Part shown: piece by piece, positions 1-18,323 of the stretch
How positions within the stretch are numbered: position 1 is the stretch's first letter
Layout: every line of letters begins with the position of its first letter
Virus record (IMG/VR): IMGVR_UViG_2606217100_000004
Source of the DNA: a virus
Lineage: Duplodnaviria > Heunggongvirae > Uroviricota > Caudoviricetes
Direction: 5' to 3' (one strand)
DNA length: 18,323 nucleotides
The notes under the pieces: generated by a model
Database searches by the model: none
Told to the model about the DNA's origin: nothing
Seen by the model: only the letters and a program-made list of their open reading frames with translations
Position numbers and translations under genes: made by a program

Positions 1-783
1 ATGAAGATCGTAAAGGCTGAAGTTTTTGTTACCTGTCCGGGGCGTAATTTCGTCACATTAAAAATCACCACTGAGGACGGTATTACGGGCCTTGGGGATG
101 CCACCCTCAATGGACGTGAGCTTTCCGTGGCCTCTTATTTGCAGGATCACCTTTGTCCGCAGCTTATTGGTCGCGATGCGCACCGTATCGAAGATATCTG
201 GCAGTTTTTCTATAAAGGTGCTTACTGGCGTCGCGGTCCGGTTACGATGTCGGCCATTTCAGCGGTTGATATGGCGCTGTGGGATATTAAAGCCAAAGCT
301 GCCAACATGCCGCTTTACCAGTTACTCGGCGGCGCGTCTCGTGAAGGGGTGATGGTTTATTGCCATACCACCGGTCACAGTATTGATGAAGCTCTGGATG
401 ATTATGCCCGTCATCAGGAGCTGGGATTCAAAGCCATCCGCGTGCAGTGCGGAATCCCTGGTATGAAAACCACCTACGGCATGTCGAAAGGTAAAGGTCT
501 GGCTTATGAACCCGCAACCAAAGGACAGTGGCCGGAAGAGCAGCTGTGGTCGACGGAGAAATACCTCGATTTCATGCCGAAATTGTTTGACGCGGTACGT
601 AACAAGTTTGGTTTTAATGAACATTTGCTGCATGACATGCACCATCGCTTAACGCCTATTGAAGCGGCGCGCTTTGGTAAAAGCATTGAAGATTATCGCA
701 TGTTCTGGATGGAAGACCCGACGCCTGCAGAAAACCAGGAATGCTTCCGTCTCATTCGCCAACATAGCGGAACTGTTTGCTGA
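1..783 (+). CDS. rspA: Starvation-sensing protein RspA (enolase-superfamily D-mannonate dehydratase family), 5' portion only; frame ends prematurely at a junction with prophage DNA
   Basis: ORF starts at nt 1 ([30 protein letters not shown]...), which I recognise as RspA. Full-length proteins of this family are about 400 aa; here the frame stops after 260 aa and the last residues (SGTVC) look junction-derived. Confidence 0.8.
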
Positions 784-847
784 GAACACCGTGCGGTGTC
801 TTGATGGAAAGTAATTTAGAATAACCTAACACGAGAGGCAAGTGTTT

Positions 848-867
848 TTGTTAGATTTGTCTAACAA
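848..867. promoter_or_regulatory. Perfect 8-4-8 palindrome TTGTTAGA-tttg-TCTAACAA, candidate DicA-type operator downstream of dicA
   Basis: Read directly from the sequence. The same half-sites recur at 1360-1377 in the dicA-dicC intergenic region. Confidence 0.5.
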
Positions 868-902
868 AAAGGGTGGGCGCAACTAATCACTTGAAAAGAA
901 TG

Positions 903-1310
903 TTATTTTATTGATTTATTTTTACGCGCTTTAAGCATTTCTTCGAAGAGTTTGTTGAAGTTTTCTACTCTTGAGCGCATTTCAGACAGTAAGGCTTCCT
1001 GCTCGGAAGATGGAAGAGCATCGAATAATTCGATCAATTCTTTGTGGTTGGGAGTTAGCTCTGTTTCCACATGTAGTTCTTGTGCAGGCACTGGTGCCTT
1101 GTCTTCGTCACCAAACATTAGCCATGTAGGTGAGCACTTCAGAGCATCCGCTAAAGCAAACAATCGTTTTCCGACTGGCTGGGTTTCGTCTCTTTCCCAT
1201 TGTGAAATTGTGACGTGAGCAACTCCAGCGAGGCGCGCAGCTTCTCGTTGTGTTAAGCGTAATTCTTTTCGTCGCGCCAGAACTCGCTGGCCTAGGGTTC
1301 TTGTATCCAT
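903..1310 (-). CDS. dicA: DicA-like HTH (XRE-family) prophage repressor
   Basis: 135-aa ORF with an N-terminal HTH (LRLTQREAARLAGVAHVTISQWERDETQP) and a C-terminus (VENFNKLFEEMLKARK) closely resembling K-12 DicA as I recall it. Divergent from a Cro-like gene. Confidence 0.8.
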   Translation of the reverse strand: MDTRTLGQRVLARRKELRLTQREAARLAGVAHVTISQWERDETQPVGKRLFALADALKCSPTWLMFGDEDKAPVPAQELHVETELTPNHKELIELFDALPSSEQEALLSEMRSRVENFNKLFEEMLKARKNKSIK

Positions 1311-1332
1311 AGTTAGGTAATTCTAATTTTTC

Positions 1333-1377
1333 TTGACTTAGGTATCCCGCGCACAATAATGTTAGAAAAGTCTAACA
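1333..1377 (+). promoter_or_regulatory. Candidate dicC promoter (-35 TTGACT 1333-1338, 17-bp spacer, -10 ATAATG 1356-1361) overlapped by a palindromic operator TGTTAGA-aaag-TCTAACA (1360-1377)
   Basis: Near-consensus sigma70 hexamers with 17-bp spacing seen directly. The palindrome shares its half-sites with 848-867. Confidence 0.5.
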
Positions 1378-1387
1378 ATAGGGGGCT

Positions 1388-1618
1388 TTGATGCTTAAAG
1401 TTGACGCAATTACTTTTTTTGGCAGCAAAACAAAGCTTGCCAATGCCGCAGGAGTGAGGCTGGCAAGTGTTGCTGCTTGGGGGATACTGGTTCCTGAAGG
1501 TCGCGCGATGCGTCTACAGGAGGCATCTGGCGGGGAGCTTCAGTATGATCCCAAAGTTTATGACGAATATCGTAAGACGAAGCGGGCGGGGCGGTTGAAC
1601 AATGAAAATCACTCCTGA
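1388..1618 (+). CDS. dicC: DicC-like (Cro-type) small regulator
   Basis: 76-aa ORF divergent from dicA. The C-terminal half (LVPEGRAMRLQEASGGELQYDPKVYDEY) matches my recollection of DicC. Confidence 0.75.
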   Translation: MMLKVDAITFFGSKTKLANAAGVRLASVAAWGILVPEGRAMRLQEASGGELQYDPKVYDEYRKTKRAGRLNNENHS

Positions 1619-2123
1619 ACAGGCTCGTGAGGCTCTGGATGCCTGGATATGTCGACCAGGAATGACACAGGAGCAGGCGACGATATTAATCACTGAAGCA
1701 TTCTGGGCTTTGAAAGAGCGCCCGAACATCGATGTTCAGCGTGTCACAGATGAAGGTGGCGCGGTTGATCAGCGAGCACTTGGCGTTAATCGAGTGAAGA
1801 TATTCGAACGCTGGAAGGCTATCGACACCAGGGATAAGCGTGAAAAGTTCACGGCGCTAGTGCCTGCAATTATGGAGGCTATCCGGATTAATGATTTCAG
1901 GTTGTATCGTGAAATTAGTGACGGAAAAAGCATCACGTACATGATCGCCGGGTTAAACAAAGAATATGGCGATGTGGTGGAGTCCGGACTGCTTTTTGCT
2001 GATCCTGCCGTAGTGGATCGTGAAACTGACGAACTTATAGAAAAAGCAATTGCTTTCAAACTTGCGTATCGACAGCAATACCAACAAAAAGCTGGATGGA
2101 ATTATGAGCCTTCTTTTTGCTGA
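1602..2123 (+). CDS. Hypothetical prophage early-region protein (possibly YdaT-like)
   Basis: 173-aa ORF whose start overlaps the dicC stop, in the position of a cII or YdaT-type gene. Family assignment is not verified. Confidence 0.5.
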   Translation: MKITPEQAREALDAWICRPGMTQEQATILITEAFWALKERPNIDVQRVTDEGGAVDQRALGVNRVKIFERWKAIDTRDKREKFTALVPAIMEAIRINDFRLYREISDGKSITYMIAGLNKEYGDVVESGLLFADPAVVDRETDELIEKAIAFKLAYRQQYQQKAGWNYEPSFC

Positions 2124-3069
2124 ACGCCCACTGGTTATAAACACACAGCTTGCGATGAAGATTGGCTTAAATGAAGCCATTGTGTTGCAGCAGTTGCATT
2201 ACTGGTTGAGAGATACCAATTCCGGCATGGAATGTGATGGTGTTCGCTGGATTTACAACACAACGGAACAATGGCTGGAACAGTTCCCATTCTGGTCAGA
2301 GTCAACGTTAAAGCGCGCGTTTGCAAGTCTGAAAACGCTGGGGCTTTTGCGTTGTGAAAAGCTCAATAAATCAAAGCGCGATATGACCAATTTCTACACG
2401 ATTAACTATGGGAGCGAGCTTTTAGATGATGGCAAATTGAGCGAATCCATCGGTTCAAAATGCGCCGCTCCATCAGGTCAAAATGACACGATGGAAGAGG
2501 TCAAAATGAAACGCTCCATTGGTTCAAAACGACCCAATGTCATCGGGTCAAAATGGCCCGATGATCCTACAGAGAATACAACAGAGATTACTACAGAGAA
2601 TAAAAACACTTTTCGTCCGGAAGCTTCGCAACCGGACCCGCAGACGGCTGAACAGGATTTTTTAATCCGGCACCCTGGCGCAGTTGTGTTTAGTGCGAAA
2701 AAACGCCAGTGGGGTAGCCAGGAGGATCTGGCGTGTGCGCAGTGGATATGGTGGCGGATCGTGGGTCTCTACGAACAGGCCGCCAGTGATGATGGCGAGA
2801 TCATGCGACCAAAAGAGCCTAACTGGACTGTCTGGGCCAATGATGTGCGCACAATGCGGATGCTGGATGGCAGAAGCCACAGACAAATTTGTGAAATGTT
2901 TGGTCGGGTACAGCGGGATCCATTCTGGGTAAAAAACATCATGAGCCCGTCAAAGCTCCGCGAAAAATGGGACGAACTGGTCATCCGCCTGGGGCGTTCA
3001 CCTGTACAGCGTTGTGTTAATCATATTTCTGAACCGGATACAGAAATTCCGCCTGGTTTCAGAGGATAA
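2104..3069 (+). CDS. Phage replication initiator (O-like replisome organiser with an iteron-encoding linker and a DnaT-like C-terminal region)
   Basis: ATG at 2104 is preferred over TTG at 2050 because it overlaps the upstream stop by only 20 nt. The N-terminal winged-HTH-like region resembles phage replication organisers, and the gene body contains five iteron-like repeats. Confidence 0.65.
   Translation: MSLLFAERPLVINTQLAMKIGLNEAIVLQQLHYWLRDTNSGMECDGVRWIYNTTEQWLEQFPFWSESTLKRAFASLKTLGLLRCEKLNKSKRDMTNFYTINYGSELLDDGKLSESIGSKCAAPSGQNDTMEEVKMKRSIGSKRPNVIGSKWPDDPTENTTEITTENKNTFRPEASQPDPQTAEQDFLIRHPGAVVFSAKKRQWGSQEDLACAQWIWWRIVGLYEQAASDDGEIMRPKEPNWTVWANDVRTMRMLDGRSHRQICEMFGRVQRDPFWVKNIMSPSKLREKWDELVIRLGRSPVQRCVNHISEPDTEIPPGFRG
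2445..2608. repeat. Candidate prophage origin of replication: five iterons (core GGTYCAAAAYG) at about 23-bp spacing, followed by short ACAGAGA direct repeats
   Basis: Iteron cores at 2452-2462, 2476-2485, 2499-2508, 2521-2531 and 2546-2555, each preceded by TCCATYRG-like sequence. ACAGAGAATA/ACAGAGATTA repeats lie at 2568-2608. The layout matches lambda-type ori inside the O gene. Confidence 0.6.
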
Positions 3070-3109
3070 GTTTTGATTTCAGGTCATGAGGTAATTTTAA
3101 GGGGGACTT

Positions 3110-3511
3110 GTGGCAAAAGTTTTTACACAAGAAGAGCGGGAAAAAATTAAAGGGCAGGTGGTGGAACTCGTGCGCCAGAGCGGTCGTGAGACGTTACGGC
3201 AACTGGAAGCTAAAACAGGTGCGACTAGATATCTGATGAGCGTTCTTGCCAGAGAGCTGGTAGCCAGTGGCGATGTATACAACTCCGGCTACGGGTTATT
3301 CCCGTCTGAACAGGCGCGTAAGGACTGGCAAAACGCCCGCAAAAAACTCTCGAGGGCAAAGGTGAAGAAAACAGCTGTGGTTGATCCGGACCTTATCTGG
3401 TCGTTACCTGATGGAGAAATACGTCGCTACGACAGTCGCCTAAACATAATCTGTCGCGAGTGCCGGATGAGTGAAGTTATGCAGCGCATACTGGCATTTT
3501 ATCAGGGATAA
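3110..3511 (+). CDS. Hypothetical prophage protein with a possible HTH
   Basis: 133-aa ORF with a GTG start at 3110 and a strong SD (AAGGGGGAC) upstream. Composition matches the phage backbone, not the AT-rich retron. Confidence 0.5.
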   Translation: MAKVFTQEEREKIKGQVVELVRQSGRETLRQLEAKTGATRYLMSVLARELVASGDVYNSGYGLFPSEQARKDWQNARKKLSRAKVKKTAVVDPDLIWSLPDGEIRRYDSRLNIICRECRMSEVMQRILAFYQG

Positions 3512-3778
3512 TGTTAGGTATTTTAGACGTTACTAGATTAAAAAGCATTAGTTCAGGAGTGAATTGACATTCTCATTTTTCATGGCACAGGGTAGATCTG
3601 GCGTGGTTGTCCGCTTTGTGCCAGAGGCGGACGTTGTTAAAATAGAAAATATCCCAACCTTGTATGAGTCGTGCAATAATTTCGAACTTTATACAAAGCT
3701 TTGGTTGTAAAGGTGTATAACCACAAGTGACATTAATCACATTTGTAAAGGCAAAATGCAACAAACTGAATTAGTTAA

Positions 3779-3806
3779 TTGCGTAAATTTGAAGTTATGT
3801 TAAGGT
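3779..3806 (+). promoter_or_regulatory. Candidate retron promoter (-35 TTGCGT 3779-3784, 16-bp spacer, -10 TAAGGT 3801-3806)
   Basis: The hexamers place a transcription start at about 3813, coinciding with the first base of the a1 inverted repeat. Motif-level evidence only. Confidence 0.3.
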
Positions 3807-3812
3807 GGTGAT

Positions 3813-3945
3813 GGTTTATGGGCAGATTTTGGGTCGCGTTTCGCGATCAGTGAAAAAAATGTCCGATAGGATTGCCTTTCAGGATCTCATGTTCCTCGCA
3901 TTTCTTAAGGTTCTTGTCAAGTTTGCGTAAGAGTGCCCATAAACC
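3813..3945 (+). ncRNA. Candidate retron msr-msd (template for msDNA), bounded by a1/a2 inverted repeats
   Basis: Perfect 12-nt inverted repeat: GGTTTATGGGCA (3813-3824) and TGCCCATAAACC (3934-3945). A G follows a1 at 3825 (candidate branching G), and a2 ends 19 nt before the RT start codon. The 133-nt span is a plausible size for an msr-msd. Exact ends are not determined. Confidence 0.45.
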
Positions 3946-3964
3946 CTTTTAGAGGCGATCTAAA

Positions 3965-5800
3965 GTGAAACGACTACAATCATTAAAAGAAGCAAAAACA
4001 AAACCAGACTTGGCTAAGCTATTAGGAATCAAACCTTCAGCGTTAACATACTGCCTATATGTATTAAAACCTGAAAATCAATACACACAGTTTAAGATAC
4101 CAAAAAAAAATGGCGGCGAACGGATAATAAGTGCACCTAACGGAATATTAAAGACGATACAGTCATCCTTATCAGGACTGCTTCTAGATTGCTTAGACGA
4201 AATAGTTTGCATTAAGTTTCCAGACTCAGAGTTAGCAAGGCAGAAAGCAAAAAACTCAAAAATATTAAAGTTAAAATGTTCCAACTCAGAAATCAAACAA
4301 CCCTCACTGTCTCATGGATTTGAAAGAAAGCGTTCAATTATTACAAATGCAATGATGCATTTGGGGAAAAAATATGTTTTTAATATAGACTTGGATAATT
4401 TTTTCGGCAGTTTTAACTTTGGTAGAGTCCGAGGTTTTTTCATAAAAAATAGAAACTTTGCACTCGATCCGGAAATCGCAACTGTAATTGCTAAAATTGC
4501 GTGCTACAACAATGAACTACCCCAAGGCAGCCCATGCTCCCCAGTAATCACTAATCTAATCATTCACTCGTTAGACATTAAACTGGCAGCGATTGCATCA
4601 AGAAACTCATCCACTTTTACAAGATATGCTGATGATATTACATTCTCTACGAGGAAGGGGGCGTTTCCTTCTGCTATAGCAAAAAATCAAAATGGTAAAT
4701 ATATCGTTAGTAAGAAAATTAGGGGCGAGATAACTCGCTCAGGTTTTATAATTAATGATGGGAAGACAAGAAATCAGTATAAAGACTCGAGGCAAGATGT
4801 AACAGGCTTAGTGGTTAATAAAAAGCCAAACACGAAAAAAGAATATTGGAGGCTTGTGCGTGCGCAATGTGACCATTTATTTAAACATGGTGAGTTCTTA
4901 GAGGTGATTGACGGCAAGGAAATAAAGGGGAATGTTAATAGCCTTGCAGGCAAACTTAACTTCATAGACCAAGTTGACCACTATAATAGATTGCGTCAAG
5001 GCGAAAAATTAAATCCAAAATATCACTTAAAAAAAGATGCCAATAAAAATGGCCATGCCAAAAAAAGGCGTTACTTGCATAGTTCTAGAGAAAAAACGTT
5101 TAGTGAGTTTCTCTTCTATCGTTTATTTTATGGCAATGAATTACCAACAATTCTTACGGAAGGTAAAACTGACAATATTTATCTGAAGGCAGCAATACAT
5201 AAGTTAGCCTCATCATTCCCTAATTTGGCGGTAGCTGAAAGTCCAGGGCTCTCTTATAAGCCACGGACTAAATTTGTTAACTACAATGAGCGGACAAAAT
5301 ATTTACTTGAACTTTATGGTGGCGCTGATTATTTAAAGGATTTTGTTATTCATTATAAACAACACTTTAATCGTTATAAGGCTCCCAAACCATCTAATCC
5401 AGTAATTATACTTGTTGATAATGATAGCGGACCAAAAGATCTGATTAATTACGTTAGTAAAGTTGATAATATTGGTATTTTCCCCACAGGTGTTCCAGAT
5501 ATCCGCGCCTCTGAGTTTGTACATATTTTTTGTAATCTTTATTTAGTGCTTACCCCTCAAGTTAAGGGATATACAGGAACTGATATAGAGCATTTTTTTA
5601 AAGATGCAGATCGACTTAGACCACATAAAGGTAAGTTTTTCAATACAGTCTCTAAGCGTGATCATGATAATGATTTGAGCAAGGAATCTTTCGCAACTCA
5701 TATTGTTCATGCCCACAAGCATGAAATTGATTTTAGTGGATTTACAAGCCTGTTAGAACGGTTAGTAAAAGTCATAAATCACTTTGACACTGTTAAGTAA
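3965..5800 (+). CDS. Retron-type reverse transcriptase fused to a C-terminal TOPRIM-like domain (Retron-Eco2/Ec67-like)
   Basis: 611-aa ORF with a GTG start. RT motifs appear in order: NAMMH (NAxxH), NIDLDNFF, LPQGSPCSP, YADD (nt 4625-4636), VTGLVVN (VTG). The C-terminal part has TEGKTD (E codon 5159-5161) and VDNDSG (DxD), the TOPRIM E...DxD signature. The gene is strongly AT-rich compared with its flanks. Confidence 0.85.
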   Translation: MKRLQSLKEAKTKPDLAKLLGIKPSALTYCLYVLKPENQYTQFKIPKKNGGERIISAPNGILKTIQSSLSGLLLDCLDEIVCIKFPDSELARQKAKNSKILKLKCSNSEIKQPSLSHGFERKRSIITNAMMHLGKKYVFNIDLDNFFGSFNFGRVRGFFIKNRNFALDPEIATVIAKIACYNNELPQGSPCSPVITNLIIHSLDIKLAAIASRNSSTFTRYADDITFSTRKGAFPSAIAKNQNGKYIVSKKIRGEITRSGFIINDGKTRNQYKDSRQDVTGLVVNKKPNTKKEYWRLVRAQCDHLFKHGEFLEVIDGKEIKGNVNSLAGKLNFIDQVDHYNRLRQGEKLNPKYHLKKDANKNGHAKKRRYLHSSREKTFSEFLFYRLFYGNELPTILTEGKTDNIYLKAAIHKLASSFPNLAVAESPGLSYKPRTKFVNYNERTKYLLELYGGADYLKDFVIHYKQHFNRYKAPKPSNPVIILVDNDSGPKDLINYVSKVDNIGIFPTGVPDIRASEFVHIFCNLYLVLTPQVKGYTGTDIEHFFKDADRLRPHKGKFFNTVSKRDHDNDLSKESFATHIVHAHKHEIDFSGFTSLLERLVKVINHFDTVK

Positions 5801-6361
5801 TATTATGATGCGCACTGATTATTCCTTATTCAGCTAAAATTTCTACTGTAGTCCCAACTTCCGTTCCTCGCTCAAAGCGGACTAAAAGGTTAGCTTGTGT
5901 CGGACTTTGCGTATTAAAAGAAGTGCTGGTGGTGACTAGTGGTTGAGCCCCATTTCCACAGAAAAAATCAGAGAAACTATACCCAATAGTTGTATTGAAT
6001 CACTGACGAGACAGCCTCATATTCATCAGGACTGGTGTACGTCCAATACAGGAGGTTGTGGTGCTGGTTCTCAAATGTGCGCTGGCTATTACGGCTGTAA
6101 TGGCGATTTATTGTCTTGCTATTGTTCTTATGGATCGCCTTTCTGACTGATTTCATATTGGCGAGGTAACGGTAGTTAAGTAGAATGGCTGCGGGTGCTT
6201 GAGGCTATCTGCCTCGGGCATGAACACCAAAGGCAGATAGAGAAAAGCCCCAGTTAACATTACGCGTCCTGCAAGACGCTTAACATTAATCTGAGGCCAA
6301 TTTCATGCTAGACACATGTAGGTTAGCCTCTTACGTGCCGGAAGGCAAGGAGAAGCAGGCT

Positions 6362-6517
6362 ATGAAGCAGCAAAAGGCGATGTTAATCGCCCTGATCGTC
6401 ATCTGTTTAACCGTCATAGTGACGGCACTGGTAACGAGGAAAGACCTCTGCGAGGTACGAATCCGAACCGGCCAGACGGAGGTCGCTGTCTTCACAGCTT
6501 ACGAACCTGAGGAGTAA
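6362..6517 (+). CDS. hokD: Hok-family membrane toxin (HokD/RelF-like); in-frame upstream extension from 6305
   Basis: MKQQKAMLIALIVICLTVIVTALVTRKDLCEVRIRTGQTEVAVFTAYEPEE: a 51-aa single-TM Hok peptide with an AGGAGA SD upstream. A 3' fold-back hairpin and a terminator follow. Confidence 0.85.
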   Translation: MKQQKAMLIALIVICLTVIVTALVTRKDLCEVRIRTGQTEVAVFTAYEPEE

Positions 6518-6585
6518 GAGACCCGGCGAGGGAGAAATCCCTCGCCACCTCTGATGTGGCAGGCATCCTCAACGCACCCGCACTT

Positions 6586-6612
6586 AACCCGCTTCGGCGG
6601 GTTTTTGTTTTT
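6586..6612 (+). terminator. Intrinsic terminator downstream of hokD
   Basis: Stem CCCGC/GCGGG with a TTCG loop, followed by TTTTTGTTTTT. Confidence 0.6.
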
Positions 6613-6733
6613 ATTTTCAACGCGTTTGAAGTTCTGGACGGTGCCGGAATAGAATCAAAAATACTTAAGTAGCGCGCAGGGATAAGAGGGATGGTCCCTT
6701 AAAGGGGAGAGCTAATTATCCGGAAGGATTCTG

Positions 6734-6985
6734 ATGATGAACATCGAAGAACTGCGTAAAATTTTTTGTGAAGATGGCCTCTATGCTGTGTGCGTTGAAA
6801 ATGGAAATCTTGTTAGTCATTACCGCATTATGTGTTTGCGAAAGAATGGGGCTGCGTTAATTAATTTTGTGGATGGTCGAGTGACAGACGGATTTATCTT
6901 GCGCGAAGGTGAGTTTGTCACTTCATTACAGGCACTGAAAGAGATCGGAATAAAAGCAGGCTTTTCAGCTTTTGCAGAAGAATAA
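6734..6985 (+). CDS. rem: Rem-like small prophage protein
   Basis: 83-aa ORF (MMNIEELRKIFCEDGLYAVCVENGN...) with a GGAAGGA SD, lying between hokD and the DUF968 gene as in Qin-type prophages. Confidence 0.65.
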   Translation: MMNIEELRKIFCEDGLYAVCVENGNLVSHYRIMCLRKNGAALINFVDGRVTDGFILREGEFVTSLQALKEIGIKAGFSAFAEE

Positions 6986-7051
6986 ACTCATCTACAATCT
7001 TGCGCGGGGCTGAACTCCCGCTGAGTAACACCGTGCCACCGGAGAAAACCG

Positions 7052-7330
7052 ATGGCACGCAACGTAAAATATTACAATTCTGATAATTCGCCCGTTCTTG
7101 TCTGCACGCACGAGCGGTATTCTCACGCATTCAAGTCTGAATGGTTCCAACACCCTCCATGCACTGAAGAGCAGGCTGAATGGATAATTCAGTGTTACCG
7201 CAGGCGCGGATACGAGGTTAAGAAAGCCCTTAGCCTCGACTACCGTCACTGGATAATCTCAGTCAGATTGCCTTACTCCGAACGCCCACCACGTGCGTCC
7301 CGCACTTTCCAGCAACGGATCTGGAGGTAA
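7052..7330 (+). CDS. Hypothetical prophage protein
   Basis: 92-aa ORF with a GGAGAAAA SD; its stop overlaps the SD of the next gene, suggesting translational coupling. Confidence 0.45.
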   Translation: MARNVKYYNSDNSPVLVCTHERYSHAFKSEWFQHPPCTEEQAEWIIQCYRRRGYEVKKALSLDYRHWIISVRLPYSERPPRASRTFQQRIWR

Positions 7331-7331
7331 C

Positions 7332-8381
7332 GTGCGGGTATTACTTAGACCTGTTCTGGTGCCTGAGCTTGGGCTGGTGGTCCTTAAGCCGGGCCGTGAA
7401 TCCATACAGATATTTCATAATCCTCGAGTGCTGGTGGAACCGGAACCAAAAAGCATGCGTAATCTGCCATCCGGAGTCGTTCCTGCCGTTCGCCAGTCGC
7501 TGGCGGAAGACAAAACATTGCTGCCGTTTTTTAGTAACGAACGGGTGATTCGTGCTGCTGGCGGTGTTGGCGCATTGTCTGACTGGCTATTACGTCATGT
7601 TACATCCTGCCAGTGGCCTAATGGCGATTACCATCACTCTGAAACAGTCATTCACCGTTATGGTACCGGCGCAATGGTGTTGTGTTGGCACTGCGACAAC
7701 CAACTGCGTGACCAGACATCGGAATCACTGGAGCTGCTTGCTCAACAAAATCTGACAGCATGGGTGATTGACGTCATCCGTCACGCAATAAGCGGTACGC
7801 AGGAGCGGGAATTATCTTTGGCTGAATTATCCTGGTGGGCGGTCTGCAATCAGGTGGTGGATGCACTACCTGAGGCTGTATCGCGTCGTTCGCTGGGATT
7901 ACCAGCGGAAAAAATCTGCTCGGTGTACCGCGAAAGCGACATCGTACCGGGAGAGCAGACCGCCACCAGCATATTGAAACAACGCACAAAAAATCTTGCA
8001 CCGTTGCCTTACGCCCACCAGCAACAAAAAACACCACAGGAAAAGACGGTGGTAAGCATCACCGTTGATCCAGAGTCTCCGGAATCTTTCATGAAGCTGC
8101 CTAAACGTCGCCGCTGGGTTAAGGAGAAATACACACGTTGGGTTAAGACACAGCCGTGTGCTTGCTGCGGTATGCCAGCCGACGATCCGCATCATCTGAT
8201 TGGTCACGGGCAGGGCGGAATGGGAACAAAAGCACATGATCTCTTTGTGTTGCCTTTGTGCAGAAAGCATCACAACGAGCTGCATACGGATACAGTGGCA
8301 TTTGAAGAGAAGTATGGCTCCCAACTGGAGCTGATATTTCGTTTTATCGATCGCGCGCTGGCAATTGGCGTACTGGCGTAA
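7332..8381 (+). CDS. ydfU: DUF968-family prophage protein (YdfU-like)
   Basis: GTG start at 7332 preceded by GGAGGT. The C-terminus has Cys/His clusters ([18 protein letters not shown]...CRKHHNELH) as in the lambdoid DUF968 protein upstream of Q. Confidence 0.7.
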
Positions 8382-8394
8382 GTGGAGAACGAGC

Positions 8395-9141
8395 ATGAAC
8401 CTTGAAGCCTTACCAAAATATTACTCCCCAAAATCTCCAAAATTGAGCGATGACGCTCCAGCGACAGGCACCGGTTGTTTAACAATTACGGATGTAATGG
8501 CAGCGCAGGGGATGGTGCAGTCGAAAGCACCACTTGGGTTGGCCTTATTTCTGGCAAAAGTTGGTGTTCAGGACGCTCAGTTTGCGATTGAAGGCCTGCT
8601 AAATTACGCGATGGCACTGGATAACCCGACATTGAACAAATTGAGTGAAGAAATCCGGTTACAGATTATTCCTTACCTCGTGAATTTTGCCTTTGCTGAT
8701 TACTCCAGGTCTGCGGCAAGTAAGGCTCGCTGTGAGCATTGTTCAGGTACGGGATTTTATAATGTATTGCGCGAAGTGGTGAAACACTACAGACGCGGGG
8801 AATCTGTAATCAAGGAAGAATGGGTGAAGGAACTATGTCAGCATTGCCATGGTAAGGGCGAAGTCAGCACAGCGTGCAGAGGGTGTAAGGGTAAAGGGAT
8901 TGTTCTGGATGAAAAAAGAACCCGGTTTCATGGCGTACCGGTATATAAGATTTGTGGGCGTTGTAATGGAAACCGGTTTAGTCGTTTACCGACCACGCTG
9001 GCACGACGTCATGTCCAGAAGCTGGTACCAGACCTGACCGATTATCAGTGGTATAGCCTGGTTTTTGGCCTGCTGACGTATCTGACAAATCTTTATTTCA
9101 AGATTAAAGAAGACAGGCGTAAGGCTGCGAGAGGAGAGTAA
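8395..9141 (+). CDS. quuQ: Late-gene antiterminator Q-like protein
   Basis: ATG at 8395 with a GGAGA SD. Cys-rich zinc-binding region (CEHCSGTGF...CQHCHGKGE...CRGCKGKG...CGRCNG), positioned immediately upstream of lysis genes. Confidence 0.7.
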
Positions 9142-9145
9142 TCCA

Positions 9146-9453
9146 ATGACTCAAGACTATGAACTGGTTGTGAAAGGAGTCCGTAATTTTGAGAATAAAG
9201 TTACGGTAACTGTAGCCTTACAGGACAAGGAACGCTTTGACGGTGAAATTTTTGACCTGGATGTCGCCATGGACCGTGTTGAAGGAGCTGCGCTGGAGTT
9301 TTATGAGGCAGCAGCCAGAAGGAGCGTCCGGCAAGTCTTCCTGGAAGTAGCAGAAAAATTGTCAGAAAAAGTTGAGTCTTATCTGCAGCATCAGTACTCC
9401 TTTAAGATTGAAAATCCTGCCAATAAGCACGAGCGTCCTCATCATAAATATAT

Positions 9454-9457
<4 letters not shown>
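9146..9457 (+). CDS. ydfR: YdfR-like (DUF1327) late-region protein
   Basis: 103-aa hydrophilic ORF between Q and the endolysin. It has no transmembrane segment, so it is not a holin. Confidence 0.6.
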
Positions 9458-10481
<1,024 letters not shown>

Positions 10482-10703
10482 GGTAATATTAAATCGGAAC
10501 ATTTACATCGCGGAATGTAAAATTTAAATAAAAAGGACTCTTCCATGAGCCAAAATTCCTGAAATCTTAAGGGTAAGATAAAAGGTCTTAATCAGAATGA
10601 CACGTTTTATTAATAAATAAAGCTATTCTTTCATTGCTGTGTTTTTCTTTACAAAAGTAATCCTTGCTATGGGTGGTTAATCATGCGTTAATGGTGTTCT
10701 GGT

Positions 10704-10740
10704 TTGTTACAAATTTATCTGAAGCAGTCATTGTTATAAT
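10704..10740 (+). promoter_or_regulatory. Candidate cspI promoter with extended -10 (TGtTATAAT at 10732-10740) and a roughly 100-nt AT-rich leader
   Basis: TGnTATAAT motif seen directly. A long AT-rich 5' UTR is typical of CspA-family cold-shock genes. Confidence 0.3.
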
Positions 10741-10843
10741 TTTATTATTTGTACCTCTTGAGATTTCCTTGTTGGTTTTTCTCTCTGATATTTTTTTTCG
10801 GACCATTCTGCCCAAGGGCTAATTTCTTCAAAAGGTAATAATT

Positions 10844-11056
10844 ATGTCTAACAAAATGACTGGTTTAGTGAAATGGTTTAACCCTGAAAAAGGTTTTGGT
10901 TTCATCACGCCGAAAGATGGCAGCAAAGATGTGTTTGTCCATTTCTCAGCAATTCAGAGCAACGATTTCAAAACATTAACTGAGAATCAGGAAGTTGAAT
11001 TTGGTATTGAGAACGGACCTAAAGGTCCTGCCGCTGTTCATGTAGTGGCGCTTTGA
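10844..11056 (+). CDS. cspI: CspA-family cold-shock protein
   Basis: 70 aa, [23 protein letters not shown]...VHFSAI: RNP1/RNP2 cold-shock domain motifs. Confidence 0.9.
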
Positions 11057-11260
11057 GGTAGACAATATTACAAACCATATTCACTTTAGATGCCCGTGTT
11101 GTCATGGTTCCCAGTATAGAACATCATCTTTTGATGTTTCTGACATGAATCCTTTCGGGGCAAAATGTATCTTTTGTAAATCAATGATGATTACATTTGA
11201 TAATATTTCACAATACTTAAATGCCAGCCGTCTGTCGTTGGATTTAAAAAAGTGAAAATG

Positions 11261-11283
11261 AAGGCTCCTTCGGGAGCTTTTTT
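11261..11283 (+). terminator. Intrinsic terminator
   Basis: Stem GCTCC/GGAGC with a TTCG loop, followed by TTTTTT. Confidence 0.5.
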
Positions 11284-11327
11284 GCTTGGTATCTATTCGA
11301 TGGATACTCACATACTACGGTAACATC

Positions 11328-11558
11328 ATGAAAAAAATCATAGTTTTTTTTAACTCTGAACCAGCAGTGGTAGTGCCAGCGATGACTGGAGTTAACACCA
11401 TCATGCGTGAATATCCAAATGGCGAAAAAACACACCTTACTGTAATGGCCGCAGGGTTTCCATCTCTGACCGGAGATCATAAAGTCATTTATGTAGCCGC
11501 GGATCGACATGTTACTTCAGAAGAAATTCTGGAAGCAGCAATAAGGCTCTTGAGTTGA
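11328..11558 (+). CDS. Hypothetical small protein
   Basis: ATG at 11328 preferred over the TTG at 11286, which lies inside the terminator tail. No clear SD and no recognised family. Confidence 0.35.
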   Translation: MKKIIVFFNSEPAVVVPAMTGVNTIMREYPNGEKTHLTVMAAGFPSLTGDHKVIYVAADRHVTSEEILEAAIRLLS

Positions 11559-11726
11559 TTTTATGCTATTGTATTGATAATTCAGGAAAATCCTCTTTGT
11601 CTGTTTGTGTAAAATTTAGACTATCGTATGTTGATTATTGCGATGTTTCATCTTATCTTTTACACGTTTGCACCATATAATCGACTTACTGTGTAACTGG
11701 AAAGTCATAACAGACTAAAAGAGGAA

Positions 11727-11903
11727 ATGATGAATATTGAAAACTTAAAAACAAAAGCAGAAGCAGATATTTCTGAATATATAACAAAAAAAATTATTGA
11801 ACTTAAGAAAAAGACCGGGAAAGAAGTTACCAGTATTCAGTTTACCGCACGGGAAAAAATGACGGGTCTTGAAAGCTATGATGTCAAGATTAATTTAATC
11901 TGA
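11727..11903 (+). CDS. gnsB: GnsA/GnsB-family small protein
   Basis: 58-aa ORF not in the supplied track (MMNIENLKTKAEADISEYITKKIIELKKKTGKEVTSIQFTAREKMTGLESYDVKINLI) with an AGAGGA SD. Confidence 0.65.
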   Translation: MMNIENLKTKAEADISEYITKKIIELKKKTGKEVTSIQFTAREKMTGLESYDVKINLI

Positions 11904-11930
11904 TGTATTCAATAATAAAATTTATCCATA

Positions 11931-11958
11931 AACCTCGTTTTTACGGGGTTTTGTTATA
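11931..11958 (+). terminator. Candidate intrinsic terminator after gnsB
   Basis: Stem AACCTCG/CGGGGTT around a TTTTTA loop, followed by a T-rich tract. Confidence 0.4.
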
Positions 11959-12017
11959 TTTGAATGGTTCCGAATATCTAAATCACAATTGTTGATGGTT
12001 TTTATTAAACCAATGCA

Positions 12018-12046
12018 GTCCGGCTCAGGAGTGAGAGAAGCCGGAC
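12018..12046 (-). terminator. Candidate hairpin terminator downstream of ydfO
   Basis: 8-bp stem GTCCGGCT/AGCCGGAC, 9 nt past the ydfO stop; the U-tract on the minus strand is weak. Confidence 0.3.
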
Positions 12047-12054
12047 GTTATGGT

Positions 12055-12465
12055 TTAGCGTGGTAAGATCTGTGTAGTTTTCTGGATGCTTTCAGTAAAT
12101 AGTAATGAGTTATCAAAGGCATAGTAATATCTTTGGTGTTCCTGGATATTTGTAACCCATCGGAAAACTCCTGCTTTAGCAAGATTTTCCCTGTATTGTT
12201 GAAATGTGATTTCTTTTGATTTCAACTTATTATAGGAGGTCTCTATAAGATGTTTGTTTCTGGAGAATTTAACATTTACAACCTTTTTGAGTCCTTTTAC
12301 TAACACTATGTTGTCGTTTTCTAACACAATGTGAATATTATCTGTGGCTAAATAGTAAATATAAAGTGAGACATTGTGACGTTTTAGCTCAGAATAAAAT
12401 AATTCACAGTTTAAATCTTTACGCACTTGATCGAATATTTCTTTAAAAATGGCAGCCTGAGCCAT
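12055..12465 (-). CDS. ydfO: DUF1398-family prophage protein (YdfO-like)
   Basis: Start chosen at the internal Met ([17 protein letters not shown]...). [13 protein letters not shown] and [30 protein letters not shown] resemble YdfO as I recall it. Confidence 0.7.
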
Positions 12466-12765
12466 TGGTAAACCTTCCATGTGATACGATGGCGCGTAGT
12501 TAGCATTATCGTGTTTATTGTTTCAATCTGGTCTGACCTCTTTGTGTTTTGTTGATGATTTATGTCAAATATTAAGCCTGTTTTTGATGAATAGTGTTGA
12601 TTGCGTAACAAAATTGAGCCTTGCTGGCATCCAGGAGGGATATGCAACCGACAGATGTATGTAAGGTCGATGTACTCAAACTTTCATACTTTTCCTCTTT
12701 TATGCAGTAAGATTTGAAGTAATATTTTAACCGCTAGATGACGAGCAAACGCATGGAGCGACAAA

Positions 12766-12972
12766 ATGAATAAAGAACAATCTGCTGATGAACTCTCGTT
12801 GGATCTGATTCGTGTAAAAAATATGCTTAATAGCACCATTTCTATGAGTTACCCGGATGTTGTAATTGCATGTATAGAACATCAGGTGTCTCTGGAAGCA
12901 TTCAGGGCAATTGAGGCAGCGTTGGTGAAGCACGATAAGAATTCGAAGGATTATTCCCTGGTGGTTGACTGA
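12766..12972 (+). CDS. Hypothetical small protein
   Basis: 68-aa ORF with a GGAGCG SD 6 nt upstream, divergent from ydfO. Confidence 0.45.
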
Positions 12973-13296
12973 GCACCATAACTGCTAATCATTCAAACTA
13001 TTTCACCTGTGACAGAGTCAATATCGCATTCTGTCACTGTCAGGCTAATACAGAGCTGCAATTCAACTACTGCAATGTCCTCGTAATTAGGTGAATTTAC
13101 AATATCGTCCTGTTCGGATGCCGGTTGCATTGCTGAAGATGAGGCATTTATGGTTCGCATATTTTCCCCTCATGCTCGTCAGTCCTGTGCGTAGGAAGAA
13201 ACAGGACACTCACACTAATTTGTGTGGGCATGCTGTGATGTCCTTCTGAATTATTCCTATGCCATTATGTAAAGCGCTGTATCAGATGCTCATCAC

Positions 13297-13320
13297 GGCT
13301 GTCAGGCTGTCAGGCTGTCG
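13297..13320. repeat. Three tandem copies of an 8-mer (GGCTGTCA x2, GGCTGTCG) leading into a GC-rich tract
   Basis: Read directly from the sequence. Confidence 0.5.
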
Positions 13321-13542
13321 GGTCCTCCCGGTGGGGGCCCCTGCCACGGGGCGGGAGCGTCGCGGAAAAAGGCTAGTTTTTGCATTTCCATGGCGGCGGC
13401 AGCATGTTTGGTAATTTATTGATAATTAAAAGTTATTTCTCTTTTTACCTGTACAATATTTTTTTCTCCCTGTCATTAGACCAGTTTACAATTAATTGAA
13501 ATATATAAATAAACATGATTTTCACCTGCCAGATGGAGTTGC

Positions 13543-14221
13543 TTATGTCAAATGTGAGCGGGATCGGTGATGCTTATTACGACCACCTGCACGTACCCAG
13601 TCTGATTCTGTCGCCGCTCCACCACGAATCTGAATTTTCCAGGCCTCAGCCTCCTTAACAGGGTCAATCCACGGCATCACCGGTCCGGAATACACCGCGG
13701 TATACAGTGAAGAACGATCAAGATCGCGGGGTAGCCTGATAACACCGGATGCCACAGCCTGTTTCAGCCAGGCACGATACATCGGGCGGGTGACGGCACC
13801 AATAAACCAGTCCTGCAGGATCAGGTAGCCATCAGTGGATTCAACCAGCTCCTGACGCTGGGCGCTGTAAGTGCCGTTATAGTTGCGTGCCGTACTGGAA
13901 AAACTCAGACGACTGCCCGCCGCCACGGCACGCAACTGACCATTACGAAAAGTTTCAAGGTTAGGATTGGGACGATCCGACTTCACCATTCCGATTTCTT
14001 CGCCGGGTTTCAGATCGTCGTAAATAATGCCTGGCTGAATGGTAAGCTCGCGTTCATTCTCCTTGCTGCCATTACCATCCGGTTCATAGCTCTGCCCGTC
14101 GCCTTTCCGGATGTACATCCCCAGAGCAGCGGCGATCCTTGCTGCAGTCAGCTCAGAATCTTCATACTCTTTCAGGGCACTGAGGCGGATCAGCACACCG
14201 GACAACAAAGACGTCCCGCGC
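13543..14221 (-). pseudogene. Lambda-family portal protein (gpB-like) internal/C-terminal fragment
   Basis: The minus-strand frame (…RAVAAGSRLSFSSTARNYNGTYS…WLKQAVASGVIRLP…PWIDPVKEAEAW…) resembles the C-terminal part of lambda gpB as I recall it. The first 38 codons of the track ORF are an out-of-frame read of the V fragment. Confidence 0.45.
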
Positions 14222-14908
14222 ATCTGGTGCAAGGGCGATGCGTTTGCGAACCCTTTATCGGACACTGACTGGCTGCGTCTTGCGATGGTGAAGGATCTGC
14301 AACCTGGCGAAATGACCGCTGATGCAGAAGATGACACTTATCTCGATGATGAAGATGCAGACTGGAAAACGACAACCCAGGGGCAGAAATCCGTCGGTGA
14401 TACTTCGGCGACGCTGGCCTGGCGTCCGGGTGACAGCGGGCAGAAAAAACTGGTTCAGTTGTTCGACTCCGGTGAAGTCTGCGCGTTTCGTATCAAATAT
14501 CCCAACGGCACTGTTGATGTTTTCCGTGGCTGGCTGAGCTCACTGGGTAAAACCATTGCCTCAAAAGACGTGATGACCCGCACAGTGAAAATCAGCGGTG
14601 TGGGGCGTCCGTATCTGGCAGAGGAAGGCACTGAAACAGTGAGCGTTACCGGGCTGACGGTGGCACCGGCATCTGCCAGTGTAAAAGTGGGAGCAACCAC
14701 CACGCTGACCTTTACAGTAAAACCTGACGGAGCCAGTGACAAAGCGATCAGTGTGCATTCGACAGATCCACAGACTGCCACGGTGACCCTGAACGGGCTT
14801 GTGGCCACGGTGAAAGGCGTGAAGCAGGGCAGTGTCAGCATTGTGGGCATGACTTCTGACGGCGATTTTGTGGCAGTGGCTGCGGTGGCTGTCAGCGCCG
14901 CAGGTTAA
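14222..14908 (+). pseudogene. Lambda gpV-like major tail protein, N-terminally truncated
   Basis: ANPLSDTDWLRLAMVKDLQPGEMTA…YLDDEDADW…PNGTVDVFRGW…Ig-like C-terminus closely matches lambda V from about residue 20 onward. No V-like start codon or N-terminus is present. Confidence 0.75.
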
Positions 14909-14910
14909 CA

Positions 14911-15667
14911 GGACGATACTCATCATTTGCCCCGGTTAGTGCCGCTTCCTCGGCAACGGCGGCAGGCAATTCCGCGAAGGCGGCAAAGACGTCTGAGACA
15001 AACGCCAGGTCTTCTGAAACGGCAGCGGAACAGAGTGCCTCAGCTGCGGCAGGCTCAAAAACAGCGGCTGCGTCGTCTGCCAGTGCAGCGTCAACAAGTG
15101 CCGGGCAGGCCTCAGCCAGTGCTAGCGCCGCCGGAAAATCGGCAGAAAGCGCCGCATCGTCCGCTTCAACAGCCACAACGAAGGCTGGCGAAGCCACTGA
15201 ACAGGCCAGCGCAGCAGCGAGGTCTGCTTCCGCAGCGAAGACATCCGAAACGAACGCGAAAGCGTCGGAAACCAACGCAGAATCCTCAAAAACGGCTGCC
15301 GCATCGTCCGCCAGTTCGGCGGCGTCATCGGCATCATCGGCGTCTGCTTCAAAAGATGAGGCGACCAGACAGGCGTCAGCAGCGAGGGGCAGCGCCACGA
15401 CGGCATCCACGAAGGCGACAGAGGCTGCTGGCAGTGCGGCAGCGGCAGCACAGAGCAAAAGTACGGCAGAATCCGCAGCAACGCGCGCTGAGACAGCGGC
15501 AAAACGGGCAGAGGATATTGCATCCGCCGTGGCGCTTGAGGATGCGAGCACGACGAAAAAGGGGATAGTACAGCTCAGCAGTGCGACTAACAGCACTTCC
15601 GAGTCACTGGCGGCAACGCCAAAAGCCGTTAAGGCCGCGTATGACCTGGCTATACGAGGTGTATAAC
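14911..15667 (+). pseudogene. Side tail fibre (Stf) Ala/Ser-rich segment, no start codon, open from the V stop, ending in a frameshift
   Basis: A frame without ATG reads …KTSETNA…SASAAS…[34 protein letters not shown], then stops at 15665-15667. The tail-fibre sequence continues in another frame. Confidence 0.55.
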
Positions 15668-16510
15668 AACGGATATCCAACAGCGTATGGAAATATCATT
15701 CACCTGAAAGGGATGACAGCCGTTGGCGAAGGTGAGTTACTCATCGGCTGGAGTGGTACAAGCGGTGCTCATGCTCCGGCATTTATTCGTTCACGACGGG
15801 ATACGACCGGCGCAAACTGGTCGCCGTGGGCGCAGCTTTACACCTCGGCTCATCCTCCTGCAGAGTTTTATCCAGTCGGTGCACCAATCCCGTGGCCATC
15901 AGATACCGTTCCGTCTGGTTATGCCCTGATGCAGGGGCAGACTTTTGACAAATCTGCTTACCCGAAACTTGCAGCCGCTTATCCGTCAGGCGTGATCCCT
16001 GATATGCGTGGCTGGACGATTAAGGGCAAGCCCGCCAGTGATCGAGCCGTATTGTCTCAGGAACAGGACGGCATTAAATCACACACCCACAGCGCCAGCG
16101 TATCCAGTACGGATTTGGGGACGAAAACCACATCGTCGTTTGATTACGGCACTAAATCCACGAATAACACTGGTGCGCATACCCATAGTGTTAGCGGTAC
16201 GGCTGCTTCAGCCGGTGCACATACCCATTCGATGACATTTGTTTCAGGTGGTTCCAGTGGTGCTCCGGGAAGTGGATCACCTGATTATTCTAAATACAGT
16301 GTTAACACTTCTTCTGCAGGCGCTCATACGCACTCTGTATCGGGTACTGCTGCAAGCGCAGGTGCACACGCACATACTGTCGGTATTGGTGCTCATACGC
16401 ACTCCGTTGCGATTGGTTCACATGGACATACCATCACCGTTAACGCTGCTGGTAACGCGGAAAACACCGTCAAAAACATCGCATTTAACTATATTGTGAG
16501 GCTTGCATAA
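15581..16510 (+). CDS. stfQ: Side tail fibre C-terminal portion (StfQ-like); true start uncertain
   Basis: Contains PIPWPSD…[10 protein letters not shown]…repeated GAHTHS/GAHAHT…[31 protein letters not shown], a typical lambdoid tail-fibre distal domain. The first roughly 20 codons of the track ORF are probably out-of-frame junk. Confidence 0.65.
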
Positions 16511-17085
16511 TGGCATTCAGAATGAGTGAACAACCACGGACCATAAAAATTTATAATCTGCTGGCCGGAACTAATGAATTTATTGGTGAAGGTGACGCAT
16601 ATATTCCGCCTCATACAGGTCTGCCAGCAAACAGTATCGATATTGCACCGCCAGATATTCCGGCAGGCTTCGTGGCTGTTTTCAACAGTGATGAGGCATC
16701 GTGGCATCTCGTTGAAGATCATCGGGGTAAAACGGTTTATGACGTGGCTTCCGGCGACGCGTTATTTATTTCTGAACTCGGTCCGTTACCGGAAAATGTT
16801 ACCTGGTTATCGCCGGGAGGGGAATATCAGAAGTGGAACGGCACAGCCTGGGTGAAGGATACGGAAGCAGAAAAACTGTTCCGGATCCGGGAGGCGGAAG
16901 AAACAAAAAACAGCCTGATGCAGGTAGCCAGTGAGCATATTGCGCCGCTTCAGGATGCTGCAGATCTGGAAATTGCAACGGAGGAAGAAATCTCGTTGCT
17001 GGAAGCATGGAAAAAGTATCGGGTATTGCTGAACCGTGTTGATACGTCAACTGCACAGGATATTGAATGGCCAGCACTGCCGTAG
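16510..17085 (+). CDS. tfaQ: Tail fibre assembly protein (Tfa)
   Basis: 191 aa; ATG overlaps the stf stop (ATAATGG), and the product resembles Tfa chaperones (…[14 protein letters not shown]…EWPALP). Confidence 0.8.
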
Positions 17086-17182
17086 GGTAAAACATATAAA
17101 TTCTATAATTAGATGTATCTTTCCATTTACGGCAAGGAAGGTGGCTTGGAAGACGTAAAGCATCTCACACCGAGATTATTTT

Positions 17183-17773
17183 TTATATGTCAGGTGTCTG
17201 AAGTTTTGCTTTGGCTCTTAAAATGGTTTGCCGCGAGGTTTTGAATTCCCGGGCAATGGCACTTATACTTACACCTGACTTAATTCGTTCGAATACCACC
17301 TGTTTCTGTTCTTCATTTAACACTGGTGGTCGACCAAAACGTTTCCCTGCGCCCCGGGCTCTTACTATCCCGGAATGAGTGCGTTCAAGTAAAAGGTCTC
17401 GTTCAAATTCAGCGACTGCTGAAATTACTTGCATCATCATTTTTCCTGTTGGACTGGTCAGGTCAATGCCCCCCAATGCTAAGCAATGCACTCTGATACC
17501 TGTTTCGGTCAGTTGTTCCACTGTTTTCCTGATATCCATTGCATTACAACCAAGGCGATCCAGTTTTGTCACAATCAATTGATCACCACATTTCAGGCGA
17601 GCAAGCAACCGGTTAAAACCAGGACGCTCACTGGTTGCTGCTGAGCCGCTAATGTGTTCTTCGATTATTTGCTGAGGTTTGATTTTAAAACCTGCACTTT
17701 CGATTTCCCGGCGTTGATTTTCGGTGGTCTGATCCAGCGTTGATATCCGACAGTAAGCAAAAATTCGAGACAT
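17183..17773 (-). CDS. pinQ: Serine recombinase / DNA invertase (Pin/Gin/Hin family)
   Basis: 196 aa: [15 protein letters not shown] (catalytic Ser motif), resolvase core, and a C-terminal HTH ([17 protein letters not shown]). Confidence 0.9.
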
Positions 17774-18089
17774 AGTGAGACTCTATACGAAATTGGTGTT
17801 CATATCATAATGCATCTCAGAAAATAATTTTGATTATTTTTGTGCATATTTGTATGTACACGTTCGAAAATAAACGAATGCGTATGCAACCCCGTAATTT
17901 TGGTGAGACCCAAAATCGATTTTGTGAAAAATGGCTTTAACTCGGTTTGTTTTTCGAGTTCCGGGCGGACTCAAGGAAGAAGAATAGTGTTGCGTGTTAT
18001 TTTAACCAGATTTCAAGTTGTTTGGTCGTGGAAAAGTGGAGCAAAATGTTGTTAAAGTGGAAAAATGATAAAAAAGTAAGTTTATTATA

Positions 18090-18323
18090 TTACATTTTAC
18101 CATTTAAATTTTGGTTGTCTTTAAGAACTGATATCGCTGTTTGTAATAATTCTTTGTTATCCAGCCATGATTTTTTCTTTATGTTTCCTTCAATGTAATC
18201 AAGCAATGTTCTGGTATTGATAGGTCTTCCCTGTTTTGCTACTTCCACTACAGCATCCCCTAGGATAATTCTTACTTCAGGAAGCTGCGCAGGGAACCAC
18301 TTTAGGGTGTCTTTTGATTTCAT
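18090..18323 (-). CDS. ydfK: YdfK/YnaE-like small prophage protein
   Basis: 77-aa ORF whose start codon lies at the last bases of the window, adjacent to pin as ydfK/ynaE are in Qin/Rac-type prophages. Confidence 0.55.
   Translation of the reverse strand: MKSKDTLKWFPAQLPEVRIILGDAVVEVAKQGRPINTRTLLDYIEGNIKKKSWLDNKELLQTAISVLKDNQNLNGKM

Follow-up and report, generated by a model that had tools for sequence, protein, structure and literature searches.

Illegitimate deletions that remove host-killing functions of the early left operon as well as int and xis are a feature of the decay ('domestication') of defective prophages and of the survivors of lambda induction, and such deletions may also extend into neighbouring host genes. 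The closest described relative of the locus analysed here is the immunity region of the Qin prophage of E. coli K-12, for which the initial annotation had correctly given the order dicC/dicA/ydfA-ydfB-ydfC-dicF-dicB-ydfD-ydfE'-IS2-intQ'-ynfP-rspB-rspA. K-12 DicA binds the operator Oc in vivo, and one base change abolishes this binding (PMC3441716). Ragunathan and Vanderpool (J Bacteriol 2023; PMC10448788) engineered a deletion, delta-dicBF (ydfA-intQ::tet), that removes everything from ydfA through int and keeps dicBp, dicA, dicC and rem; cells that carry it survive when dicBp switches, whether spontaneously or under stress. Of the colonies grown from overnight cultures of a K-12 strain without dicBF, about 1% had dicBp switched on; from dicBF+ K-12 no dicBp-on colonies were recovered, for which the authors blame DicB/DicF toxicity (PMC10448788).

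The stretch of DNA analysed here (18,323 nucleotides; hereafter the window) shares with K-12 Qin the chromosomal site (on the ynfA–rspA side), a 135-aa DicA-family repressor, a divergent cro-like gene, the operator half-sites TTGTTAG-N6-CTAACAA and a nearly identical leader past the inferred dicB promoter. It differs from Qin, however, in that the left arm from this leader to int, rspB and the 3' end of rspA are missing, that the repressor is only 56% identical to K-12 DicA over its full length, and that the place of the relBE-ydfV-flxA region is taken by a YdaT-type gene, replication genes and a retron Ec67-family reverse transcriptase. Just as in delta-dicBF, the interval from ydfA through int is gone and dicBp, dicA, dicC and rem are kept, but the present deletion arose naturally and without a marker; its prophage-side end falls in the leader, not at ydfA, and on the other side it takes in 1.9 kb of host DNA, which destroys rspB and rspA. 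As in prophage domestication, a second deletion runs from within Q, whose 3' end is lost, across the genes in between and into the 5' part of the holin gene; as a difference from the survivors of lambda induction, there is no sign that an induction came first, and an undeleted relative has exactly the same intact repressor and switch. The event is of a known kind, i.e. ordinary prophage decay, and only the particular allele is new.

The junction between rspA and the dicBF leader

The undeleted relative is E. coli SW071614 (NZ_CM129856.1), which carries the intact order ynfA-rspA-rspB-int-xis-exo-ydfD-dicB-DicF-ydfC-ydfB-ydfA-repressor (dicA)-cro; K-12 has the same order, but with a decayed int end. 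Over the whole locus, i.e. about 26 kb, the two strains differ by about five substitutions and one single-base indel, with one mismatch in the 8,291 nt (8.3 kb) past the junction and one in 10 kb upstream. The initial annotation had read this place as a deletion that removed dicB and DicF. Measured against SW071614 it is indeed one clean loss of 7,379 bp (L001 12624–20002, where L001 denotes the SW071614 locus), inside which both dicB and DicF lie, but its extent is considerably larger than this pair: the missing segment begins with the last 449 nt of rspA (its last 149 codons), continues through rspB, the host/prophage boundary, int, xis, a 2.5-kb exonuclease gene and ydfD, and beyond dicB and DicF also holds ydfC, ydfB and ydfA, before it ends with the 29–31 nt (about 30 nt) of operon leader that precede the ydfA start codon. 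Thus, the dicBF operon (ydfABC-dicF-dicB-ydfD), which adjoins the repressor gene in SW071614 and in K-12, is not in the window, and none of its genes is found beside the repressor gene there. With Rfam models, DicF was detected at L001 19045–19096, between dicB and ydfC (76.7 bits; gathering score, 48), whereas it had no match in the whole window at gathering thresholds and none at E<=1 in 700–4100, a region in which the permissive-threshold Rfam search returned no structured RNA. This loss holds for the present prophage only, and the strain may keep another copy, since 4,648 of 5,426 complete E. coli genomes carry dicB/DicF-like DNA, the median being two loci per genome.

At the level of single bases, the window is identical to rspA of SW071614 up to nt 766, without a mismatch, and diverges from nt 767; from position 765 on, it is the dicA–ydfA intergenic region of a Qin-like lambdoid prophage. 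In a three-way comparison of window, rspA side and prophage side, every base at the junction could be assigned to one parent, with no base inserted, and the parents have the dinucleotide TA in common. The breakpoint and the microhomology, which the initial annotation had left to be located by alignment, are thus rspA nt 766, at codon 255/256, and these two base pairs; on the right, the deletion ends in the dicBF operon leader, 29–31 nt ahead of the ydfA start codon. The flanks are loosely alike (CGCCnnnnTAnCG, 8 of 13 positions), as can be seen when CGCCAACATACCG on the rspA side is set against CGCCGGGGTAGCG on the prophage side.

The rspA fragment sits in its usual chromosomal context downstream of ynfA, the genes further upstream (dmsD...ynfA) are in normal order on the source contigs, and window 1–769 matches rspA in 5,396 of the 5,426 complete genomes. 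That the reading frame stops at 783 and that some 120 bp separate it from dicA had been noted correctly before (the gap, 784–902, measures 119 bp); the intact part of the frame, however, had been put at about 257 codons and comprises 255 native codons, to which five new ones are added. The full-length gene of SW071614 has 1,215 nt and encodes 404 aa, i.e. full RspA does not end where the frame in the window stops. In the truncated protein the MR_MLE_N domain is complete, but Pfam MR_MLE_C is matched only over profile positions 25–95 of 219, as compared to 26–218 in the full protein, and the NCBIfam model PRK15072 over positions 1–258 of 404. It therefore falls short of a full enzyme of the RspA/ManD subgroup of the enolase superfamily, which has complete capping and barrel domains and about 404 aa. 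Because more than half of the catalytic barrel domain is gone, truncated RspA is, by its domain content, very unlikely to be active, and rspA is a truncated pseudogene here.

A mechanical open reading frame of 46 codons (649–789, minus strand) begins with a GTG in the orphaned dicBF leader, crosses the junction and runs antisense to rspA; it is probably not translated, since no Shine-Dalgarno-like sequence lies upstream of it.

Table 1. Features around the rspA–prophage junction and further RNA matches in the window (L001, SW071614 locus).
Feature	Position	Strand	Remarks
rspA, 5' part	1–766	+	766 of 1,215 nt; 100% identical to L001 11858–12623
Truncated RspA' ORF	1–783	+	260 aa/codons; 255 native residues + SGTVC from prophage DNA; TGA 781–783
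Deletion junction	765–766	no strand	dinucleotide TA common to both parents
dicA–ydfA intergenic remnant	767–902	−	operon control region and initial ~40 nt of its leader, dicBF operon itself deleted; = L001 20003–20138
Inferred dicB promoter	814–841	−	−35 TTGCCT (841–836), 17-nt spacer, −10 TAAATT (819–814)
Putative proximal operator-like site	814–831	−	imperfect, TGTTAGGTTATTCTAAAT; last 12 nt of spacer and inferred −10
Distal operator-type site	848–867	.	perfect 20-nt palindrome TTGTTAGATTTGTCTAACAA, TTGTTAG-N6-CTAACAA; just upstream of inferred −35
DicA-family repressor gene	903–1310	−	135 aa, intact; Pfam HTH_3
Oc-type operator	1359–1378	.	ATGTTAGAAAAGTCTAACAA; between repressor and cro-like genes; second copy of the 18-nt core
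Cro/DicC-like gene	1391–1618	+	75 aa, intact, divergent from repressor; Pfam P22_Cro, 45.9 bits
sok antitoxin RNA	6193–6367		Rfam, above gathering score
cspI leader	10698–11083		Rfam, above gathering score
IS009	16853–17051		Rfam, above gathering score

The surviving control region and its repressor

According to the initial annotation, an operator-like palindrome was the only trace left of the interval between dicA and rspA. The palindrome is perfect, but it is not alone: 136 bp survive, with an inferred promoter, two operator-type sites and the start of the leader (table 1). This remnant aligns with the dicA–ydfA intergenic region of K-12, and its leader part is nearly invariant across the window, SW071614 and K-12. 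In its half-sites the palindrome does not differ from the K-12 DicA operator Oc, TTGTTAGTCATAACTAACAA, and it is a predicted binding site for a DicA-family repressor. Its 18-nt core, TGTTAGA-N4-TCTAACA, has exactly two copies in the window, at 849–866 and, between the repressor and cro genes, at 1360–1377; in shuffled sequence the mean number of matches was 0.07, and none of 200 shuffles had two. At the position of the proximal, imperfect site K-12 carries TGTTAGTCATGGCTAATC.

The dicB promoter is placed from alignment with K-12 only, where the geometry is the same (TTGACC, 17 nt, TAATCT). A consensus promoter scan with a threshold of 9 of 12 positions passed it over, as it agrees with the consensus at 8 of 12, and the literature that we searched gave no mapped dicB start site. 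Transcription from this promoter would start near 806 and run leftward. By its position and orientation, the promoter—DicA-repressed and now orphaned—should thus point into rspA, i.e. antisense to it. A scan for Rho-independent terminators found nothing above chance from the orphaned promoter to ynfB.

On the other side of the remnant, the immunity region is of the Qin DicA/DicC type, with a DicA-family repressor gene, a divergent Cro/DicC-like gene and copies of the putative operator at both the pR-type and the pL-type promoter. The repressor scores 222.9 bits (cut-off, 101) with the NCBIfam model NF007257, 'transcriptional repressor DicA', over profile positions 1–134 of 135; thus, what had been called dicA is a homologue from this family, but with its 56% identity not K-12 dicA itself. 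The cro-like gene is named 'Cro/CI family transcriptional regulator' by RefSeq in SW071614, and a promoter-like site found by the promoter scan (TTGACT-16-AATAAT, 1333–1360, plus strand) faces it; the last two bases of its −10 hexamer are the first two of the Oc-type operator.

Window 765–1400 matches the repressor/cro region of Qin-like prophages, in SW071614 with 100% identity. Alongside the repressor gene, the cro-like gene and both operator regions, rem (6734–6985) is kept in the window. No repressor or operator mutation able to force deletions was found, the sole mismatch in the next 8.3 kb being located at 2570 in a replication-gene ORF.

Origin of the deletion

An important question is by what kind of event the two parental sequences became joined. 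We propose that an E. coli clone carried a Qin-like lambdoid prophage at its usual site beside rspB and that 7,379 bp would have been lost from it spontaneously in one step, so that rspA nt 766 met the leader of the pL-type dicBF operon at the 2-bp TA match, by illegitimate recombination in the form of either replication slippage or end joining. With collinear flanks, nothing inserted and an overlap of 2 bp, the junction has the hallmarks of a short-homology deletion; neither end shows an insertion sequence, a long repeat or an attachment site, which is why we take the event to have been illegitimate recombination. Overall, we regard such a single deletion from rspA nt 766 to 29–31 nt upstream of ydfA as very probably correct. 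Insertion of the prophage into rspA was considered and rejected: the prophage breakpoint lies in a pL-type leader rather than at an attachment site, and the near-identical relative keeps the interval.

A different outcome with the same junction would be that the 7.4-kb segment was moved rather than lost, by translocation or a complex rearrangement, and that DicB and DicF are still made from it elsewhere. The window does show just one of the two junctions that such an event could produce, and the same prophage has another rearranged junction at 14238. An inversion in place is nevertheless excluded by orientation, because it would set ydfA and not dicA beside rspA 1–766; a moved segment would have left its promoter behind, since dicBp stays at 814–841; and a simple deletion requires only one event. 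Relocation thus seems very unlikely to us.

It is also conceivable that the deletion was made by dedicated recombination, i.e. by aberrant Int/Xis excision, by adjacent deletion mediated by an insertion sequence or by Pin acting at pseudo-sites, and int, xis and pinQ do belong to this prophage. In addition, both private deletions in the window have the TA overlap as well as GGGTAGC at the right breakpoint, which accounts for two of the four copies of this heptamer in 40.6 kb. However, neither breakpoint coincides with a prophage end—one lies in rspA, the other in the pL-type leader—and no insertion sequence or end of one is left at the junction. Moreover, the four parental sites are alike only in the heptamer (about 16 of 52 positions) and show no dyad symmetry around TA, and at a third junction of this prophage the overlap is GCA. 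Int/Xis excision in particular is at odds with most of the prophage having stayed in place (767–18323) and with breakpoints away from the rspB-side prophage end. We therefore consider dedicated recombination highly improbable. An insertion-sequence-mediated deletion was rejected, as the junction is free of insertion-sequence DNA and the IS3 by which the strains differ is inserted elsewhere in the prophage, in SW071614; for a recombinase pseudo-site at GGGTAGC/TA, neither extended similarity nor dyad symmetry was found, and the third junction differs.

As to its distribution, none of the 5,426 complete E. coli genomes covers window 1–1400 in one piece, and the junction as a 28-nt pattern had no match in species-representative genomes (one per species) or in JGI metagenome contigs. 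An exact-protein look-up, in contrast to these searches, returned the 260-aa fusion protein from four draft or Logan contigs, with two GenBank accessions (KDY25021.1 and KDZ94275.1); the deletion rests on assemblies, and behind all four contigs there may be a single clone, or even just two read sets. Thus, the answer to whether other genomes share the junction, a point the initial annotation had raised, is that no complete genome does and that four contigs carry the exact truncated protein. One of them, JNQW01000020.1 (NCBI GCA_000704365.1), equals the Logan assembly of SRR1186649 over 20.8 kb, and the two, which were assembled separately, are each identical to the window over the 10,783 nt compared. 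It could also be that the genome is in fact intact and that rspA was fused to the immunity region of the prophage only during assembly, in a chimeric contig. In favour of such an artefact are the source being a draft short-read assembly and the absence of the junction from complete genomes. It is nevertheless barely credible: an NCBI assembly and an independently made Logan assembly agree in the junction and in 20.8 kb of sequence, four contigs that differ in length encode precisely this fusion protein, which has two accessions, and the parental overlap of 2 bp is far below any assembler overlap, so that a repeat-driven misjoin is not expected. These points speak for a real junction that is private to a single clone. 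Its absence from complete E. coli genomes, species-representative genomes and JGI metagenome contigs marks it as derived and private, and, taken together with a locus near-identical to that of SW071614, points to a recent deletion in one clone.

Consequences and further rearrangements of the prophage

After such a deletion the prophage should no longer be able to excise, and DicB and DicF, which inhibit division, as well as the lysis protein YdfD would no longer come from it. At the same time, the host would lack RspB along with an active RspA. DicA/DicC switching, apparently lethal in dicBF+ K-12, would be harmless in the absence of dicBF, and a selective advantage of losing dicBF is therefore plausible; the deletion, which also destroys rspA and rspB, could instead be neutral or have been hitch-hiking. 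In any case, the allele represents a clean and base-resolved natural case of the disarming of a cryptic prophage, in which a single event would lock the prophage in place and remove its division inhibitors, with the repressor switch and the promoter remaining intact. With SW071614 as the near-isogenic, intact partner, it lends itself to measuring what carrying dicBF costs in fitness, and it is a natural equivalent of delta-dicBF, which has served in studies of the DicA/DicC switch. For annotation, it means that rspA is to be listed as a pseudogene and the prophage as non-excisable and devoid of dicBF.

The second private deletion lies at 9055/9056, within an ORF at 8395–9141 (plus strand), where 1,867 bp of SW071614 (L001 28292–30158) are missing. 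It takes the 3' end of ydfT/Q, cspF', cspB, ynfU and the 5' end of essD, and leaves an in-frame fusion of Q antiterminator and holin of 248 aa (Pfam Antiterm and Phage_holin_2_1). This junction, too, is found in none of the 5,426 complete E. coli genomes. At 765–771 and 9054–9060 the two deletions show the same 2-bp TA overlap with GGGTAGC on the retained right side; the heptamer has four copies in the 40.6-kb reference locus, two of which are at the breakpoints of the private deletions. Past GGGTAGC/TA, no similarity and no dyad symmetry were detected among the four parental sites of both deletions, and what the two have in common is probably coincidental, though unexplained.

A more far-reaching, joint reading would be that the pair of deletions are scars of one episode and that the orphaned promoter drives host genes. 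Each deletion takes out a module that kills the host: the first removes dicBF-ydfD, the second part of Q, the region between Q and the holin gene, and the beginning of the latter. The common episode could have been a lytic switch that the cell survived, or a process of breaking and joining that depends on sequence. The orphaned promoter, controlled by DicA, DicC and Rem, could then be read antisense through rspA and ynfA towards ynfB-speG, which would put host genes under the prophage switch. As a whole, we think this joint reading unlikely.

Further along the prophage, at 14238/14239, part of a portal gene (minus strand) meets part of a 'phage tail protein' gene (plus strand), and the two overlap by 3 bp, GCA. 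No complete genome of the collection covers both sides of this junction, and SW071614 has a different junction at this place, i.e. these near-identical strains have decayed differently there. At 9216/9217 the window has the empty target site of an IS3-family element that is present in SW071614, where it is flanked by a 3-bp duplication, AGC; the element is thus an insertion in SW071614 and not a loss in the window.

The place of relBE-ydfV-flxA in K-12 Qin is occupied by a gene for a retron Ec67-family RT-Toprim protein of 611 aa (3965–5800, plus strand; NCBIfam, 738.8 bits with a cut-off of 450), which PADLOC assigns to RT-Toprim type I-C. A candidate msr-msd region just upstream of the RT gene had no Rfam match; a perfect 12-nt inverted repeat is present there, with arms at 3813–3824 and 3934–3945 that are 109 nt apart and could be the flanking arms of such a region. 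Of the Rfam matches above the gathering score (table 1), the sok antitoxin RNA lies by hokD, the cspI leader is a cspA-type thermoregulator, and IS009 is found inside tfaQ.
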